Shown here piece by piece: positions 22,439-32,647 of a DNA stretch of 64,000 bases. The notes beneath the pieces were generated by a model, which did no database searches, was not told where the DNA came from, and saw only the letters and a program-made list of their open reading frames with translations. The DNA comes from Escherichia coli (GTDB lineage Bacteria; Pseudomonadota; Gammaproteobacteria; Enterobacterales; Enterobacteriaceae). Within the stretch, counting starts at the first letter, position 1, and each line of letters starts with the position of its first letter. The translations under genes were made by a program, and so were the position numbers. The stretch is taken from the NCBI RefSeq assembly GCF_036507355.1, contig NZ_AP027877.1; one strand, written 5' to 3'.

Positions 22439-22977
22439 ACTGCCTGTTCGAGGCTGAAGCTGTCAACATTAACCTGCGGTTTCAGCCTGTCGTTCATGAT
22501 TTTAATGGCGTCGCCCAACTGCATCGCGCGACCCGCAATAACAACGCAGGGTTGTGCCAGCAGGCATAGCGCGGCATTCTCGCCAGATTCAACGACCAGT
22601 AAATTCACTTGCTCGTTAGTGTCGCTCAACCAAACGCAGGCCGCATCCCCCGGCATGGGCACCCACATTTCACCATGGGAAACAAAATGCCAGCTTTTCG
22701 GCATTTGCGGTTTGAGATAGCGAATTGCTACCAGTGCATTCAGCACCAGTTCGGCTTTTTGTTCTTTAGATAAATTAAAATCGCGGCACTTTTCTTCAAA
22801 AGAGAAATAGAGCGCGGCGTCGTCAACGCAAAAGCCTGCGGGAGAAAAGGCATCTGGAGTCAACATTTTGCGCGTAAAACGTGAGCGAAATAGCATACCA
22901 TTGGCTAAATCGAGCATCATTCGATCGTGCTCTTCATCGTAATACCAACGCCAGTTATCGTCTGGTTTAATTCGCAT
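22435..22977 (-). CDS. zapC: Z-ring associated protein ZapC
   Basis: 180 aa from [24 protein letters not shown]..., matches ZapC (YcbW). Confidence 0.92.
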
Positions 22978-23150
22978 CTGCCTCTCCCCAACCTTATAAA
23001 ACCGCAGCAACACAATCCATTGTCGCTTCGCTTAATAACCTCAACAATAAAAGTACAAAATGTCTAAATAAGCAACAGTGATGAATATAAAACAACCAGG
23101 GCTGAAAATAAAGCCCTGATTATCTTATAAAGAGGAATTCGAAGAAATAA

Positions 23151-24161
23151 TTAGATATGGGTAACGATTTCTTTAATCAGCGGCGGACCTTTAAAAATAA
23201 AACCAGAATAAATTTGCACCAGTGAGGCACCCGCAGCAATCTTTTCACGCGCAGCGATAACCGAGTCGATGCCGCCAACACCGATGATCGGTAAGCGACC
23301 GTTTAATTCCAGTGACAAGCGGCGAATAATTTCGGTGCTTTTTAACTGAAGCGGACGACCACTTAAGCCACCGGTTTGATCGCAATTTTTCATTCCCTGA
23401 ACCAGAGAACGATCGAGTGTGGTATTGGTTGCAATAACGCCATCAATATTATGGCGAACTAAACTATCGGCAACCTGGATCAATTCTTCTTCAGAAAGAT
23501 CCGGCGCGATCTTCACTGCGATCGGCACATATTTATGGTGCATCGCTTGCAAATCATTTTGTTTATTTTTAATCGCAGTTAAGAGATCATCCAGCGCTTC
23601 ACCATATTGCAGTGTGCGTAATCCTGGGGTATTTGGCGATGAAATATTGATGGCGATATATCCCGCATAGGCATAGATTTTTTCCATACAAATCAGATAG
23701 TCATCTTTGCCCTGCTCTACTGGCGTATCTTTATTTTTGCCGATGTTAATACCCAGGACGCCGTCATAATGGGCTTTTTTTACGTTCTCTACGAGGTTAT
23801 CAACGCCAAGATTATTAAAGCCCATACGGTTGATCAAACCTTCGGCATCTACCAGACGAAAGAGACGCGGCTTGTCATTACCTGGCTGTGGACGTGGCGT
23901 GACGGTACCGATCTCTATCGATCCAAATCCCATCGCGCCTAACGCATCAATGCACTCCCCGTCTTTGTCAAGACCGGCTGCCAGACCAAGCGGATTTTTA
24001 AACGTCAGGCCCATGCAGTTAACAGGTTTTGCAGGCACTTTCTGCCGCACCAGTGCTTCAAACGGTGTTCCGGTAATGCGGCGTAATTGCTGAAAAGTAA
24101 ATTCATGAGCGCGCTCTGGATCGAGCTGGAAAAGGGCTTTACGAACGAAGGGGTAGTACAT
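23151..24161 (-). CDS. pyrD: Dihydroorotate dehydrogenase (quinone)
   Basis: 336 aa from [22 protein letters not shown]..., matches PyrD. Confidence 0.95.
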
Positions 24162-24271
24162 GAACTCTCCTGGATTCCCGGTGTGCAAACCGGGGGCGTA
24201 TTATGTGCGAGTTCGGACCAAAAGGGAATTGACCTGCGGCAAAAAAAACGCAAACGTTTTCCGAACCTGTT

Positions 24272-24982
24272 TCAGGGCAGATTTTGCTCCTTCTTTGCAC
24301 TCAACCCGCCGTAATCATTTATCGCCCGCCAGGCAACATGACACGGTGCTATTGCCTGACACCAGCTTGTCTGACGCTGGCTTTTAGGCGGCACAACTCC
24401 CGCATTACTAAACGCTTTACCATTTACGCTCACCTGAATCAGGTTAATGTAGTAAGGCGTTGGGTTAGTGAGTTGTACACCCTGCGAATTCCGTGTCCAG
24501 CGTAATTGTTGATAAGCTTCCAGCGGGTCGCCCGGCAAACCTTCGGGTCGCCAGAACAGTTTAAATACCGAGCGCATCGCCACTTTTACGCTCTGATTTT
24601 CAACTTTGCCGGATGGCACGCTGGCAATGCTTAACTCAAATAGCGTTTCGCGATCCACAGGCAAGATGTCGCTTTCCGTTCTCAGCAAGCGCAACGTGCC
24701 TGTCGTACCGGGCTTCAGGAGAATAAGTGGCGGAGCGGCCAGTAATGGTGCTGGCACTGTCGACGCTTCACCCCCGGCCCAACGCGTTGGGCGGTTGATT
24801 TTACTGTTAATAAGCCAGGATTCCTGACTGGTATTAGTCAGTAAAATAGATATCGATTCTCTGTCTGCCGGAAAGATAAATCGCGTTCCGCCGACCACCA
24901 CTCCTGCCTGCAATTCACCCGCCACCAGCAGCGATAAAACGGCGAAAATCAAGAGCGCCAATCTGTTCCACGTATTAGTCAT
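24272..24982 (-). CDS. ycbF: Fimbrial (PapD-like) periplasmic chaperone YcbF
   Basis: 236 aa from MTNTWNRLALLIFAVLSLLVAGELQA (signal peptide), chaperone motifs; matches YcbF. Confidence 0.88.
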   Translation of the reverse strand: MTNTWNRLALLIFAVLSLLVAGELQAGVVVGGTRFIFPADRESISILLTNTSQESWLINSKINRPTRWAGGEASTVPAPLLAAPPLILLKPGTTGTLRLLRTESDILPVDRETLFELSIASVPSGKVENQSVKVAMRSVFKLFWRPEGLPGDPLEAYQQLRWTRNSQGVQLTNPTPYYINLIQVSVNGKAFSNAGVVPPKSQRQTSWCQAIAPCHVAWRAINDYGGLSAKKEQNLP

Positions 24983-25489
24983 AATGAAGTACAAATGTCG
25001 CGCTGGCATTCACTTTACCCGACTGCACATCGCTATTGACAGGTCGCAATTGCGCATAAAAGTTAATGGCACCTTACCGCTATGTAGGCTGTAGTCTTTA
25101 CTCGCCTGGTTAAGCGGAATCAATATCTTCGCATCATCCAGAATCGCAATTGCCAGCCCGCTGGCTGCATCCGTACCACTTTCAATGGACAACATTTCGC
25201 TCTGCACTCCGTCGGGGGTTCCTGAAAAGGTGACGTCAACCGTGCTGACATCTGTTCCGCAATCCTGCAAATTAATGATGAAAGATTTCTCCGGGCCATA
25301 ATTCCCATGAGAAAAACGTGTCAGTGAGACATCGCCTAACTGCACATTGATTTGCTTGCTATCCTGTGCCAGCACGCATGTATTACGGCGAAACGCTCCG
25401 CTAATGTTGACCGTGCCATCATGGGCAAATAGCTCACAACCCCCCGTTAATCCCAGTAAGAACAGAATCCAGATTATCCGTTTCAACAT
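24975..25489 (-). pseudogene. ycbV: Fimbrial-like subunit YcbV, apparently disrupted by a 1 bp frameshift near the 3' end
   Basis: N-terminal frame (MLKRIIWILFLLGLTGG...) ends early in ...LTFMRNCDLSIAMCSRVK; a second frame continues FYAQLRPVNSDVQSGKVNASATFVLHYD-stop (typical pilin C-terminus); span is 515 nt, one short of 516 nt for the expected 171 aa. Confidence 0.6.
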
Positions 25490-25496
25490 CACTCCT

Positions 25497-26039
25497 TCAC
25501 TGGTAAACCAGATCAAAATAGAGAACCGCCGTCGCATTACCGCCCGTTGCTCCCGCCTTTGTGGACTTATAACGAAGTTGATATTTGAGTGTGTTATCCC
25601 CGGCTTTTAAGGGCGTAAGAGGCTGGACCTGATTGAGCGGGATTTCTTGCTGACTTTGCGCATCAAGAATTTGCACGGCAATCCCCGTTGCCATACCACC
25701 GCTTCCGCCTGTGTCAGTTAGTTTGAGCAGTGTCGGCGCAAGGGTGTCAGCCTCGCCGCTAAAAAGGACGTCCGCGCCAGTAATACCAGCGGCACAACCG
25801 GTGATATCGATATTCAAATCAGCAGCAGTGCTTACGGTATTCGCGGCCTGAAAATCACTGATATTAAAATCGCCAATATGAATATTTTGTAATGCACTTT
25901 TGGTGGTGACATCACAGCCCTGATCGACCACATTCCCATAAATATGCATACTAACTTGTTCAGGCCCAGCCATCCCAACATGGATGTTAAGAATGCTAAA
26001 GAACAAGATAACGCACTGAAATATCGTTTTTTTCTTCAT
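25497..26039 (-). CDS. ycbU: Fimbrial-like subunit YcbU
   Basis: 180 aa MKKKTIFQCVILFFSILNIHVGMA..., ends ...AVLYFDLVYQ (pilin C-terminal motif); matches YcbU. Confidence 0.9.
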   Translation of the reverse strand: MKKKTIFQCVILFFSILNIHVGMAGPEQVSMHIYGNVVDQGCDVTTKSALQNIHIGDFNISDFQAANTVSTAADLNIDITGCAAGITGADVLFSGEADTLAPTLLKLTDTGGSGGMATGIAVQILDAQSQQEIPLNQVQPLTPLKAGDNTLKYQLRYKSTKAGATGGNATAVLYFDLVYQ

Positions 26040-26050
26040 AGGTTCACGCG

Positions 26051-29269
<3,219 letters not shown>

Positions 29270-29284
29270 GGTAATGACTCCAAC

Positions 29285-29788
29285 TTACTGATAGTGTTTT
29301 ATGTTCAGATAATGCCCGATGACCTTGTCATGCAGCTCCACCGATTTTGAGAACGACAGTGACTTCCGTCCCAGCCTTGCCAGATGTTGTCTCAGATTCA
29401 GATTATGTCGCTCAATGCGCTGAGTGTAACGCTTGCTGATAACGTGCAGCTTTCCCTTCAGGCGTGATTCATACAGCGGCCAGCCATCCGTCATCCATAC
29501 CACGACCTCAAAGGCCGACAGCAGGCTCAGAAGACGCTCCAGTGTGGCCAGAGTGCGTTCACCGAAGACGTGCGCCACAACCGTCCTCCGTATCCTGTCA
29601 TACGCGTAAAACAGCCAGCGCTGACGTGATTTAGCACCGACGTAGCCCCACTGTTCGTCCATTTCAGCGCAGACAATCACATCACTGCCCGGTTGTATGC
29701 GCGAGGTTACCGACTGCGGCCTGAGTTTTTTAAGTGACGTAAAACCGTGTTGAGGCCAACGCCCATAATGCGTGCACTGGCGCGACAT
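29285..29788 (-). CDS. insB: IS1 InsB (transposase C-terminal part, expressed as InsAB' by -1 frameshift)
   Basis: 167 aa ...[54 protein letters not shown]...; A6C slippery motif (revcomp of gtttttt at 29725-29731). Confidence 0.9.
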
Positions 29789-29982
29789 CCGACGCCATTC
29801 ATGGCCATATCAATGATTTTCTGGTGCGTACCGGGCTGAGAGGTGGTGTAAGTGAACTGTAGTTGCCATGTTTTACGGCAATGAGAGCAGAGATAGCGCT
29901 GATGTCCGGCAGTGCTTTTGCCGTTACGCACCACGCCTTCAGTAGCGGAGCAGGAAGGACATCTGATGGAAATGGAAGCCAC
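29707..29982 (-). CDS. insA: IS1 InsA (transposition repressor)
   Basis: 91 aa [43 protein letters not shown]... matches InsA. Confidence 0.92.
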
Positions 29983-30037
29983 GCAAGCACCTTAAAATCA
30001 CCATCATACACTAAATCAGTAAGTTGGCAGCATTACC

Positions 30038-30296
30038 CAAAATTGACGTTGCGCGTATCTACAATTGTCTGATTCAGAACAATATCGACACGATAAACCC
30101 CTGGCGTTATTTTTTGTCCTTTTTCGAAACGAGACAAATCGGCCACCATTGAGGGATCATCTTTGAAAAAGGCTGGATCGAACCAGGTTTCAGCTTGTGC
30201 ATTGAACGCTGCCGACACAAACACCACCAGCCCACCAATAAACGATGGCACTCCACCAGAGCTTAACAGGCTGTGTTGTCGGTGAGTTCTATACAT
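30038..30296 (-). pseudogene. elfC: 5' fragment of usher gene elfC (signal peptide plus first ~86 codons), cut off by IS1
   Basis: MYRTHRQHSLLSSGGVPSFIGGLVVFVSAAFNAQAETWFDPAFFKDDPSMVADLSRFEKGQKITPGVYRVDIVLNQTIVDTRNVNF - typical usher N-terminus; continues in frame with 27112-29269 once IS1 and one repeat copy are removed. Confidence 0.88.
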
Positions 30297-30320
30297 CTCG
30301 CTCTCTTAACTGAAGACGAA

Positions 30321-31022
30321 TTACGATTTACAGTTGAGTTGCGGCGTTTCCGCCCCGTAGTCATTGATGGTTCGATACGTTACGCTGCTATTTTTGGCAC
30401 CCTTTGGCAGAGAGAATTGGTATTTATCAAAGGGGGAAATCATTTGATTTTTAACTACCTTTCCACCTATTTTCAGGTCTGTCAGGGTAATGAAATAAGG
30501 TGTTGGGTTACTGACCGTAACCATGTCAGCTGACGAAGTGCAACGCAGTTTCGCCGGAGCCTCGCCTAAGGGATACGCTAAACCTTTTGGTCGCCAGAAA
30601 AGTTTGATGACGCTTTGTGTGGCAATCTTCAGGGTATTTCCCTCTTCCCGCTTCGTTGTTGAAGGGACTGCCCGTACGCTAGTGAAGAAAAGGGTTTCTC
30701 TGTCTTTCGCCAACGGCGCACCAATGTACATAATGCGTAACAGATTCTCATTAGCCGGATTCAGCACAAATAGCGGTGGTGTAATAATAAAGTCTGCTGA
30801 TTTTTTATTATCTGGGGTCATCACCCATGACTGAATAAGATAAGGAACATCCGGACTGGTGTTACGTACACCCAGTGAAATTTGCTCTTCACCTTCTGAA
30901 TAAACAAGACGTGTTGCTGCAAGTCCAATCCCGCCTTTACCTGCCGCCCATGCGGATGAGCAGCTGAGTAATATTGCCGTTAAACTTACGGTCACAATTC
31001 CCTTTGTTATGCAAGTTTTCAT
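30321..31022 (-). CDS. elfD: Fimbrial periplasmic chaperone ElfD (YcbR)
   Basis: 233 aa MKTCITKGIVTVSLTAILLSCSSAWA..., PapD-like chaperone motifs; matches ElfD/YcbR. Confidence 0.9.
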   Translation of the reverse strand: MKTCITKGIVTVSLTAILLSCSSAWAAGKGGIGLAATRLVYSEGEEQISLGVRNTSPDVPYLIQSWVMTPDNKKSADFIITPPLFVLNPANENLLRIMYIGAPLAKDRETLFFTSVRAVPSTTKREEGNTLKIATQSVIKLFWRPKGLAYPLGEAPAKLRCTSSADMVTVSNPTPYFITLTDLKIGGKVVKNQMISPFDKYQFSLPKGAKNSSVTYRTINDYGAETPQLNCKS

Positions 31023-31125
31023 AAATAGTCACTCTTAAAAAATATGAATATCCCCTCCAGAACACTGGAGGAGTACAAATTAATAAAACAATTAATGAGT
31101 TCTATTAATAGGTAATGACTCCAAC

Positions 31126-31629
31126 TTATTGATAGTGTTTTATGTTCAGATAATGCCCGATGACTTTGTCATGCAGCTCCACCGATTTTGAGAACGACAG
31201 CGACTTCCGTCCCAGCCGTGCCAGGTGCTGCCTCAGATTCAGGTTATGCCGCTCAATTCGCTGCGTATATCGCTTGCTGATTACGTGCAGCTTTCCCTTC
31301 AGGCGGGATTCATACAGCGGCCAGCCATCCGTCATCCATATCACCACGTCAAAGGGTGACAGCAGGCTCATAAGACGCCCCAGCGTCGCCATCGTGCGTT
31401 CACCGAATACGTGCGCAACAACCGTCTTCCGGAGCCTGTCATACGCGTAAAACAGCCAGCGCTGGCGCGATTTAGCCCCGACATAGCCCCACTGTTCGTC
31501 CATTTCCGCGCAGACGATGACGTCACTGCCCGGCTGTATGCGCGAGGTTACCGACTGCGGCCTGAGTTTTTTAAGTGACGTAAAATCGTGTTGAGGCCAA
31601 CGCCCATAATGCGGGCTGTTGCCCGGCAT
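31126..31629 (-). CDS. insB: IS1 InsB
   Basis: 167 aa, about 90% identical to the other copy; A6C motif (revcomp of gtttttt at 31576-31582). Confidence 0.9.
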
Positions 31630-31823
31630 CCAACGCCATTCATGGCCATATCAATGATTTTCTGGTGCGTACCGGGTTGAGAAGCGGTGTAAGTGAACTG
31701 CAGTTGCCATGTTTTACGGCAGTGAGAGCAGAGATAGCGCTGATGTCCGGCGGTGCTTTTGCCGTTACGCACCACCCCGTCAGTAGCTGAACAGGAGGGA
31801 CAGCTGATAGAAACAGAAGCCAC
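31548..31823 (-). CDS. insA: IS1 InsA
   Basis: 91 aa [43 protein letters not shown]... Confidence 0.92.
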
Positions 31824-32072
31824 TGGAGCACCTCAAAAACACCATCATACACTAAATCAGTAAGTTGGCAGCATCACCGAGTAATTCATTGATTCAACAT
31901 CTAATGACTATCCAATAAATAAATATGCGTGATATATAAAGCCCTTTCTTTAGTTTATTTTCAGAAAAAGATACACAAAATTTATATTTGGCATTTTCTT
32001 GTCTCTCCGACAGACTGAGCGAATTGTTATCAATGTTAACAAAACAAGAACAATTGGTTATAAGGAGAGAGT

Positions 32073-32647
32073 ATGCGTGTCATCACCCTGGCGGGTAGTC
32101 CTCGCTTTCCTTCTCGCTCCAGCTCCTTGCTGGAATATGCGCGGGAAAAACTAAATGGCCTGGATGTAGAGGTTTATCACTGGAATCTGCAAAACTTCGC
32201 CGCGGAAGATCTGCTTTATGCTCGTTTCGATAGTCCGGCACTCAATACCTTCACCGAACAGTTGCAACAGGCTGACGGGCTGATTGTCGCCACGCCTGTG
32301 TATAAAGCCGCTTATTCCGGTGCGCTGAAAACCCTGCTCGACCTGCTGCCAGAACGTGCGTTGCAAGGCAAAGTGGTGCTACCGCTGGCGACGGGCGGTA
32401 CGGTGGCCCATCTGCTGGCGGTCGATTATGCCCTTAAGCCAGTTTTAAGTGCGCTGAAAGCCCAGGAGATCCTGCACGGCGTGTTTGCGATGACTCACAA
32501 GTAATTGATTACCATCACAAACCCCAGTTCACGCCGAATTTACAAACCCGTCTTGATACCGCGCTAGAAACTTTCTGGCAGGCATTGCACCGCCGCGATG
32601 TTCAGGTTCCTGATCTTCATTCTCTGCGAGGTAATGCCCATGCGTAA
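32073..32647 (+). pseudogene. ssuE: NADPH-dependent FMN reductase SsuE, apparently frameshifted (truncated at codon 143)
   Basis: Frame from ATG 32073 stops at 32502-32504 (...HGVFAMTHK*); SsuE C-terminus [52 protein letters not shown] continues in the +2 frame to 32645-32647; consistent with a 1 bp deletion near 32485-32495. Confidence 0.7.

Follow-up and report, generated by a model that had tools for sequence, protein, structure and literature searches.

Two complete copies of the insertion sequence IS1 lying in the same orientation on either side of a short segment have the outline of a composite transposon, and the finding of such a pair around the fimbrial chaperone gene elfD and the beginning of the usher gene elfC in Escherichia coli raises the question of how the arrangement came about: whether the segment moved or may move as a unit together with its flanking elements, whether one of the copies was generated from the other, or whether each of them marks an event of its own in the history of the locus.

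Within the window, i.e., the whole analysed stretch of 64,000 nucleotides (contig NZ_AP027877.1 of assembly GCF_036507355.1), which is collinear with K-12 965399-1028916, the IS1 end motif occurs three times against 0.02 occurrences expected by chance. Both elements are complete, read from the minus strand, span 768 bp and carry terminal inverted repeats at both ends. The left copy occupies positions 29270-30037 (IRR 29270-29292; IRL 30015-30037, beginning with GGTAATGCTGCC; insA 29707-29982; insB 29285-29788) and the right one positions 31111-31878 (IRR 31111-31133; IRL 31856-31878; insA 31548-31823; insB 31126-31629). In length (about 768 bp) and in their imperfect inverted repeats of about 23 bp starting with GGTRATG, they both conform to the IS1 family, and each encodes a 91-aa InsA and a 167-codon insB ORF, with the intact A6C -1 frameshift motif AAAAAAC at position 307 and an uninterrupted InsAB' fusion frame of 232 aa. 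The coordinates claimed for the pair in the earlier note proved to be exact, the direct orientation ascribed to it is borne out by the location of insA and insB on the minus strand in both copies, and the enclosed segment indeed measures 1073 bp (30038-31110) and contains elfD plus the first 259 bp of elfC.

Ungapped comparison of the left and right copies gave 69 mismatches over 768 positions (91.0% identity; 37 transitions and 32 transversions) with the longest identical run of 51 bp, and the differing codons comprise 15 synonymous and 6 non-synonymous ones in insA and 31 and 14, respectively, in insB. The divergence of roughly 8-10% previously estimated by eye thus encloses the measured value of 9%, near-identity as well as inverted orientation of the copies are excluded, and the reported variant of the terminal repeat (CATTACC versus CATCACC) is real. 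When typed against the K-12 copies IS1A, B, C, D and F, the left copy differs at 6 of the 768 positions from IS1F and at 69-72 from IS1A, B, C and D, while the right copy deviates from IS1A by 2 mismatches over 768 bp, from IS1B, C and D by 9 and from IS1F by 73, in line with the earlier description of the latter as near-canonical and of the former as a divergent isoform. Copies in many E. coli genomes are 99.9% identical to the left element, and many E. coli copies annotated as IS1A family are 100% identical to the right one. Judged by these nucleotide comparisons, the left copy is an IS1F-type isoform and the right copy is an IS1A-type isoform.

IS1A / IS1E of K-12 represents the "consensus" IS1, and IS1R of plasmid R100 resembles it closely. 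The right copy has the same length of 768 bp, inverted repeats, InsA/InsAB' organisation and A6C frameshift site as this K-12 element, but differs from it by the absence of a target-site duplication, because it is situated at a deletion junction. IS1F, in turn, has a near relative in the iso-IS1 of Shigella dysenteriae. Being a type IV IS1 removed by about 9.5% from the consensus, the K-12 IS1F has end variants in common with the left copy (IRL GGTAATG..., IRR ...ACTTACTGAT). However, the K-12 element carries a premature stop in insB and figures as a pseudogene in the annotation, whereas the InsAB' frame of the left copy is uninterrupted, and on the strength of this frame the latter may be functional. 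Our comparison of K-12 IS1F with the consensus gave 73 differing positions, which is also the published number (PMC12428005).

Target duplications produced by IS1 have a length of 8 or 9 bp (PMC12428005), and one of 8 bp surrounds the left copy: CAAAATTG stands at 29262-29269 and recurs at 30038-30045, being present as a single copy in K-12 (999467-999474). The left element represents a simple insertion, lying in elfC 259 bp past the gene start. The 3' part of the usher gene (27112-29269, minus strand) is severed from its start by this IS1F-type element, and the 5' fragment, placed by the ORF list at 30033-30296 on the same strand, consists of 259 bp of elfC (30038-30296) and continues into the IS1 end, where the stop codon (30033-30035) closes an ORF of 87 codons. 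Its product appears in GenBank as BED23014.1 ("hypothetical protein VEE46_27820") and in RefSeq as a FimD/PapC N-terminal domain protein. The 3' part has also lost 192 bp in frame (K-12 1000670-1000861, codons 485-549, according to BLAST against K-12 and the endpoint sequences) between two TGGCTAC repeats, at window positions 28060-28066, and no exact record was retrieved for the 704-aa C-terminal ElfC fragment that the sequence predicts. Both the 8-bp duplication at the left copy and this internal deletion had escaped the earlier note. elfD (30321-31022, minus strand) is intact and encodes 233 aa; ElfD in exactly this form is widespread in E. coli, occurring in tens of thousands of assemblies, and the gene is now devoid of upstream elfA and of the operon promoter. 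The segment between the two IS1 copies aligns to K-12 998402-999474 with 98.8% identity.

The right copy bears a different signature. Its flanks, CTATTAATA and GAGTAATTC, mismatch each other, so that no target-site duplication is present, and the element replaces K-12 997707-998401: 695 bp are gone, including the promoter of the fimbrial subunit gene elfA and all but 6 bp of this gene (534 of 540 bp lost). The deletion endpoint closes the interval 31023-31110 (minus strand), which is composed of the elfA-elfD intergenic region (31023-31104) and the final 6 bp of elfA (31105-31110, reading TATTAA on the gene strand); window position 31110 aligns to K-12 998402, and the end of elfA corresponds to K-12 998407. 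On the opposite side, GAGTAATTC at 31879-31887 (K-12 997698-997706; GAATTACTC on the elf strand) is the sole remaining copy of the 9-bp IS1A target. The 695-bp deletion marked by the right copy had been overlooked previously. The neighbouring ssuE (32073-32504, plus strand), lying outside the IS1 structure, contains a 1-bp deletion near 32487 as aligned to K-12 ssuE and encodes 143 aa versus 191 aa; this truncated product is also present on 5 other contigs.

Searches for other assemblies with the exact deletion junction of the window found none, and its elfD-side junction was absent from the GTDB species-representative genomes scanned. None of the 100-bp probes taken for the IRL junction of the left copy and for both junctions of the right copy is shared by any complete RefSeq E. 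coli genome as a single same-orientation piece, and among RefSeq complete E. coli genomes there was no match above 99.4%. The latter result had at first suggested that the DNA came from Shigella, an idea dropped when exact protein matches placed the window in an E. coli genome of GenBank (proteins BED230xx, locus tag VEE46_, chromosome of 4,643,937 bp). Since the exact junction was found nowhere else, the elfA-deleted state rests on one complete assembly.

The preceding state is preserved in a sister genome, sample SRR17480487. Over the 1073-bp segment the sister genomes have no mismatches, all other compared genomes having at least 4. In SRR17480487, contig L038 starts with the IRL end of IS1A, and the ssuE-side base adjoining this end is that of the window; contig L006 starts with the IRR end of IS1A joined to GAATTACTC and intact elfA and ends at an elfC::IS1F junction identical to that of the window. 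Thus, the 9-mer is found on both sides of the counterpart of the right copy, on the IRL side from L038 and on the IRR side from L006. This pre-deletion state is pieced together from a pair of short-read contigs belonging to a single sample, and because both of them end inside IS1, the continuity of IS1A between them is what we infer. A further sister-genome contig (L035) is 100% identical to window positions 19051-29322, the 3' part of elfC with them, and includes 53 bp of the IS1F-type end, while the IRL-ssuE junction is the same in the window, L037 and L038. On the IRR side, IS1A adjoins K-12 997698 in L006 and K-12 998402 in the window. The element has therefore been kept without its duplication, with one junction unchanged and DNA lost at the other end, which is the pattern by which adjacent deletions are recognised.

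Taken together, it appears probable that the cryptic elf (ycbQRST) chaperone-usher fimbrial operon decayed in place via three separate events, the third being most likely an adjacent deletion. An IS1F-type IS1 inserted into elfC, producing the 8-bp target duplication still seen there; an IS1A-type IS1 of the same orientation entered the AT-rich ssuE-elfA intergenic region with the 9-bp duplication GAATTACTC that the sister genome keeps; and a deletion then extended from the IRR end of IS1A, removing the elfA-side copy of the duplication together with the observed 695 bp, i.e., 704 bp. The last step most likely proceeded through intramolecular replicative transposition into a nearby site, giving an adjacent deletion and IS1 without duplication, and the IS1-elfD-elfC'-IS1 arrangement is a by-product of the three events and not the result of arrival as a unit. 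As in IS-promoted adjacent deletions, the IS remains in place with one of its junctions unaltered, and both the duplication and a contiguous piece next to one IS end are missing; here the pre-deletion insertion is preserved in a related genome and the mechanism is what we infer, with nothing different in kind. Classical adjacent deletions by IS1 were reportedly described for the gal region by Reif and Saedler in 1975, and replicative deletions are said to have been treated by Turlan and Chandler in 1995. Adjacent deletions frequently come after an earlier insertion, and a missing target duplication is commonly the result either of such a deletion or of recombination of one IS copy with another (PMC11708052).

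The final sequence of the locus fits both of these processes, the product of adjacent deletion and of IS1A-IS1A recombination being the same. Under the second of them, elfA would have been lost by RecA-dependent recombination between the upstream IS1A and another IS1A of the same orientation at the 3' end of elfA, leaving, identically, one IS1A with unmatched flanks, nothing of what had been between the two copies, and one junction common to the pre-deletion sister genome and the window. Repeated use of this locus as an IS1A target in many strains speaks for such a course, as does the recognised role of IS-copy recombination in the absence of duplications (PMC11708052). However, no genome was found to have the required second IS1A at K-12 998402, and at least three IRR-side endpoints departing from fixed IS1A copies (the window, L039 and L040) would each need an extra, correctly oriented insertion. 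We consider recombination an unlikely, though not negligible, route to the loss of elfA and retain adjacent deletion as the preferred one.

Far less can be said for the idea that 29270-31878 constitutes a Tn9-like composite transposon which has moved or is mobile as a unit with elfD. Two complete direct IS1 copies with intact transposase frames and ends do reproduce the outline of Tn9 (IS1-cat-IS1), where two directly repeated copies likewise surround a short segment, and this part of the earlier description, i.e., direct copies flanking 1073 bp, stands. However, the outer flanks CAAAATTG and GAGTAATTC are unmatched, therefore the unit as a whole lacks a bordering duplication; at its inner junction, the left copy holds the second half of its own duplication, which spans that copy only; the enclosed DNA is in its native place, collinear with K-12 as are both flanks; and in sister genomes the two IS1 copies are seen to have arrived separately. 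Nor was a moved copy found: across 4017 E. coli genomes the 1073-bp segment is effectively present once per genome, and no genuine plasmid was found to carry it, the 4 hits being records of chromosome size or of chromosomal context that contain the full elf locus. The flanking IS1 copies of Tn9 are near-identical. In the present case they are two isoforms, the cargo is native DNA of the chromosome, still at its original position, and both a unit-flanking duplication and signs of movement are lacking. Recombination between the left and right copies should be rare because of their 91% identity and the 51-bp limit of identical runs. The composite reading is only formal and, as an explanation of how the arrangement arose, has already been contradicted; movement or mobility of the whole as a unit is highly improbable.

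A recent duplication of one IS1, with the differences between the copies attributed to sequencing or assembly noise, has nothing but nearness and common orientation in its favour and deserves practically no credence in view of the 69 differences, of the match of each copy to a distinct widespread isoform at 99.9-100% and of the recovery of both junction types in independent short-read assemblies. The two IS1 copies were acquired independently, as the earlier note had supposed; the 9% divergence is mostly synonymous, an 8-bp duplication belongs to the left copy alone, and the events are separate in sister genomes.

Insertion of IS1 at this locus is not confined to the lineage of the window. In cS100a and WP5-S17-ESBL-10, which have a K-12-like background, a common IS1A has its IRL junction at K-12 997815 and its IRR ends at 997984 and 998381, respectively, representing nested IRR-side deletions into elfA, and these are an independent parallel to the deletion in the window. 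The same site in elfC is occupied by IS1A in the opposite orientation in E. coli 19SZHZ886Rt and relatives (L013), whose flanks show 13 differences from the window over 1073 positions. The shared IRL variant GGTAATG raised the possibility of a historical link between this element and the IS1F-type copy of the window, which was rejected given the differences in the flanks, the IS1A-type interior of the element (66 mismatches to the left copy versus 3 to IS1A) and the occurrence of IS1A with GGTAATG in 163 records. The 8-bp site CAATTTTG was used independently by an IS1F-type element (window lineage) and by IS1A, in opposite orientations and with the less common 8-bp duplication both times. It is conceivable, and we advance it tentatively, that the 5' end of the elf operon is a regional hot spot for IS1, with CAATTTTG as a precise one, and that fixed IS1A copies upstream of elfA gave rise to IRR-side deletions into this gene in at least two lineages. 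If true, the silent AT-rich promoter region of elf would be a natural system for the study of IS1 target choice and adjacent deletion.

As a whole, the locus exemplifies ordinary gene decay and known IS biology, with no new mobile element, and leaves the knowledge of IS1 unchanged; its value lies in annotation and strain history. The right IS1 should be annotated as situated at a deletion junction rather than as a fresh insertion, and the set of sister genomes provides a clear natural case of insertion followed, most likely, by adjacent deletion. Outside K-12, whose own IS1F is defective, there is thus an IS1F-type element whose transposase frame is intact. For the E. coli lineage concerned, the fimbrial operon ELF (YcbQ) is defunct, with elfA and its promoter deleted and elfC both split by an IS and internally deleted.

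Two IS1 elements of 768 bp, each delimited by IS1 terminal inverted repeats, occupy positions 29270-30037 (L copy) and 31111-31878 (R copy) of the window, which is collinear, in reverse orientation, with 965399-1028916 of E. coli K-12 MG1655 at 97.2-98.9% identity; the IS1 end motif occurs in the window 3 times versus 0.02 expected by chance. Since the 91-codon insA and 167-codon insB ORFs lie on the minus strand in each copy, both are in direct orientation, and the 1073 bp between them (30038-31110) contain elfD (30321-31022) together with the initial 259 bp of elfC. Direct reading of the region, ORF search and alignment thus bore out the positions, orientation and enclosed segment proposed in the earlier note, as well as its estimate of many substitutions between the copies (69 mismatches over 768 positions, or 91.0% identity, in an ungapped comparison) and the terminal-repeat difference, CATTACC versus CATCACC, which is real. 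The copies were typed against IS1A, IS1B, IS1C, IS1D and IS1F of K-12, where six IS1 copies are annotated; the remaining one, IS1E, has the same sequence as IS1A (PMC12428005). The R copy is of IS1A type (2 mismatches to IS1A, 9 to IS1B/C/D and 73 to IS1F) and the L copy of IS1F type (6 to IS1F, 69 to IS1A and 71-72 to IS1B/C/D), while the 73 mismatches counted between K-12 IS1F and IS1A agree with the published figure (PMC12428005). Many E. coli copies labelled “IS1A family” by NCBI match the R copy with 100% identity, and the L copy is 99.9% identical to copies across many E. coli genomes. Each still has its A6C frameshift motif and a 232-aa InsAB' frame free of interruptions, unlike K-12 IS1F, which has a stop codon in insB. 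Most codon differences between the copies are silent, with 15 synonymous against 6 non-synonymous in insA and 31 against 14 in insB, which, together with their distinct types, makes “independent acquisitions” the correct description; the two are isoforms of long standing that have been maintained separately, and neither is a decayed duplicate of the other.

The two insertion sites differ in what they preserve. The 8-mer CAAAATTG, single in K-12 (999467-999474), is found on either side of the L copy (29262-29269 and 30038-30045), in line with the 8 or 9 bp reported for IS1 target duplications (PMC12428005), and the L copy is a simple insertion. No target duplication accompanies the R copy, flanked by CTATTAATA and GAGTAATTC; its sides align to K-12 998402 and 997706, so that K-12 997707-998401 (695 bp) is missing, namely 161 bp upstream of the major fimbrial subunit gene elfA and 534 of its 540 bp, leaving only TATTAA (31105-31110). 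This deletion was overlooked in the earlier note, whose reading was otherwise of a real arrangement and largely right. Missing duplications usually mean adjacent deletion or IS-IS recombination, and adjacent deletions often come after an earlier insertion (PMC11708052).

Contigs of the same lineage were recovered by exact look-ups with ElfG, the truncated SsuE and the 87-aa ElfC N-terminal fragment (chosen because its stop codon lies inside the IS1 end), and two of them preserve the state before the deletion. In their sample, SRR17480487, contig L038 begins with the IRL end of IS1A joined to the ssuE-side base exactly as in the window, and contig L006 begins with the IRR end followed by GAATTACTC and intact elfA and elfD, terminating at an elfC::IS1F junction identical to that of the window. 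As GAATTACTC (K-12 997698-997706) flanks IS1A on both sides there, it represents a normal 9-bp duplication; the window retains the ssuE-side copy only (31879-31887) and therefore derives from an SRR17480487-like state in which 704 bp beside the IRR end of the R copy, made up of one 9-bp repeat and the 695 bp missing relative to K-12, were lost. The 1073-bp segment of L006 and of L007 (SRR31122001) has 0 mismatches to the window versus 4-14 in all other compared genomes, and sister contig L035 shows 100% identity to window 19051-29322, a stretch that takes in 53 bp of the IS1F-type end. Two insertions by different isoforms, independent of each other, were followed by a deletion that starts from the IRR end of the IS1A copy. 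It most likely arose by intramolecular replicative transposition of IS1A, yielding an adjacent deletion at this end. Adjacent deletion by IS1 is classical for the gal region, and replicative deletions are described in vitro and in vivo.

The main alternative, recombination of the R copy with a second IS1A of the same orientation at the 3' end of elfA, would leave an identical product. It is the less economical of the two, since fixed IS1A copies show several different endpoints and the two-IS1A intermediate was not found among the compared genomes. The K-12-like strains cS100a and WP5-S17-ESBL-10 carry IS1A oriented as the R copy with an identical IRL junction (K-12 997815) and IRR ends at K-12 997984 and 998381, respectively; here, independently of the window, a fixed IS1A has given two nested deletions that reach into elfA from its IRR side. 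Two further junctions in the window's lineage, each read from one side as the contigs end within IS1, come from L036 (GCA_905398635.1, 1-74), where an IS1A-type IRR end adjoins window 27261 (K-12 1001667) near the 3' end of elfC, as would be expected from a longer IRR-side deletion, and from L007 (1-26), where an IS1A IRL end adjoins K-12 997914 inside elfA, which may reflect either an inversion brought about by IS1 or another insertion in inverted orientation. Neither junction of the R copy was found as a single contiguous match in 5,426 RefSeq complete E. coli genomes, a set excluding the window's own, which exact protein matches identify as an E. coli GenBank genome with a chromosome of 4,643,937 bp (proteins BED23010-BED23031, locus tag VEE46_).

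The composite transposon suggested previously for 29270-31878 shares the outline of Tn9, but the evidence speaks against a transposed unit: no duplication surrounds the whole, cargo and both flanks keep native chromosomal order relative to K-12, the elfD-elfC' segment is on no genuine plasmid among the plasmid records searched (four “plasmid” matches being records of chromosomal size or context that contain the entire elf locus), and among the 4017 E. coli genomes having it the segment is in effect present once per genome. Loss of the unit by recombination between the L and R copies is possible but should be rare, since their longest identical run is 51 bp. The proposed survey of relatives did reveal one genome without the unit, L036, where the hybrid IS1 expected from such recombination was not seen and the IS1A-type end adjoins another elfC position.

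IS1 has struck the elf locus repeatedly in its 5' part. IS1A resides at three other sites in elfC, all inside the initial ~600 bp of the gene (AS19-RrmA-, CFS3246 and EM06-18-14), and an IS1B-type copy lies between elfA and ssuE in GF66.1. In 19SZHZ886Rt (L013, 2767-3534) and drafts L003, L004 and L005, IS1A occupies the exact 8-bp elfC target of the L copy (CAATTTTG), in the opposite orientation and on a different, K-12-like background (13/1073 flank differences), suggesting that CAATTTTG may be a precise IS1 hot spot, with an 8-bp duplication both times. In L003 (GCA_949281885.1, 10300-10345) the element is collapsed to ~166 bp and contains N; this is an artefact of assembling the repeat, not a miniature element. 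Base composition at the locus is AT-rich: the ±50 bp around the R insertion site have 22% GC, those around the deletion endpoint 31% and those around the L insertion 46%. IS1 is generally held to favor AT-rich targets.

Apart from the IS1 copies, ssuE (32073-32504) has a 1-bp deletion near 32487 relative to K-12 (GCCGAT to GCGAT), giving an NADPH-dependent FMN reductase of 143 aa versus 191 aa; this is not an assembly error, because 5 further contigs from this lineage encode the same truncated product. At 45077-45087 the window is without ~163 bp of K-12 (984320-984483, between gloC and aspC). Within elfC itself, a 192-bp in-frame deletion (codons 485-549; window 28060-28066, K-12 1000670-1000861), bounded by two 7-bp TGGCTAC repeats, is common to L035 and is not present in close relatives L028-L034. 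With the insertion into elfC, the loss of elfA and this internal deletion, the operon has been inactivated several times over, and the two IS1 copies of known isoforms represent an ordinary course of events, the pseudogenisation of a cryptic fimbrial operon.
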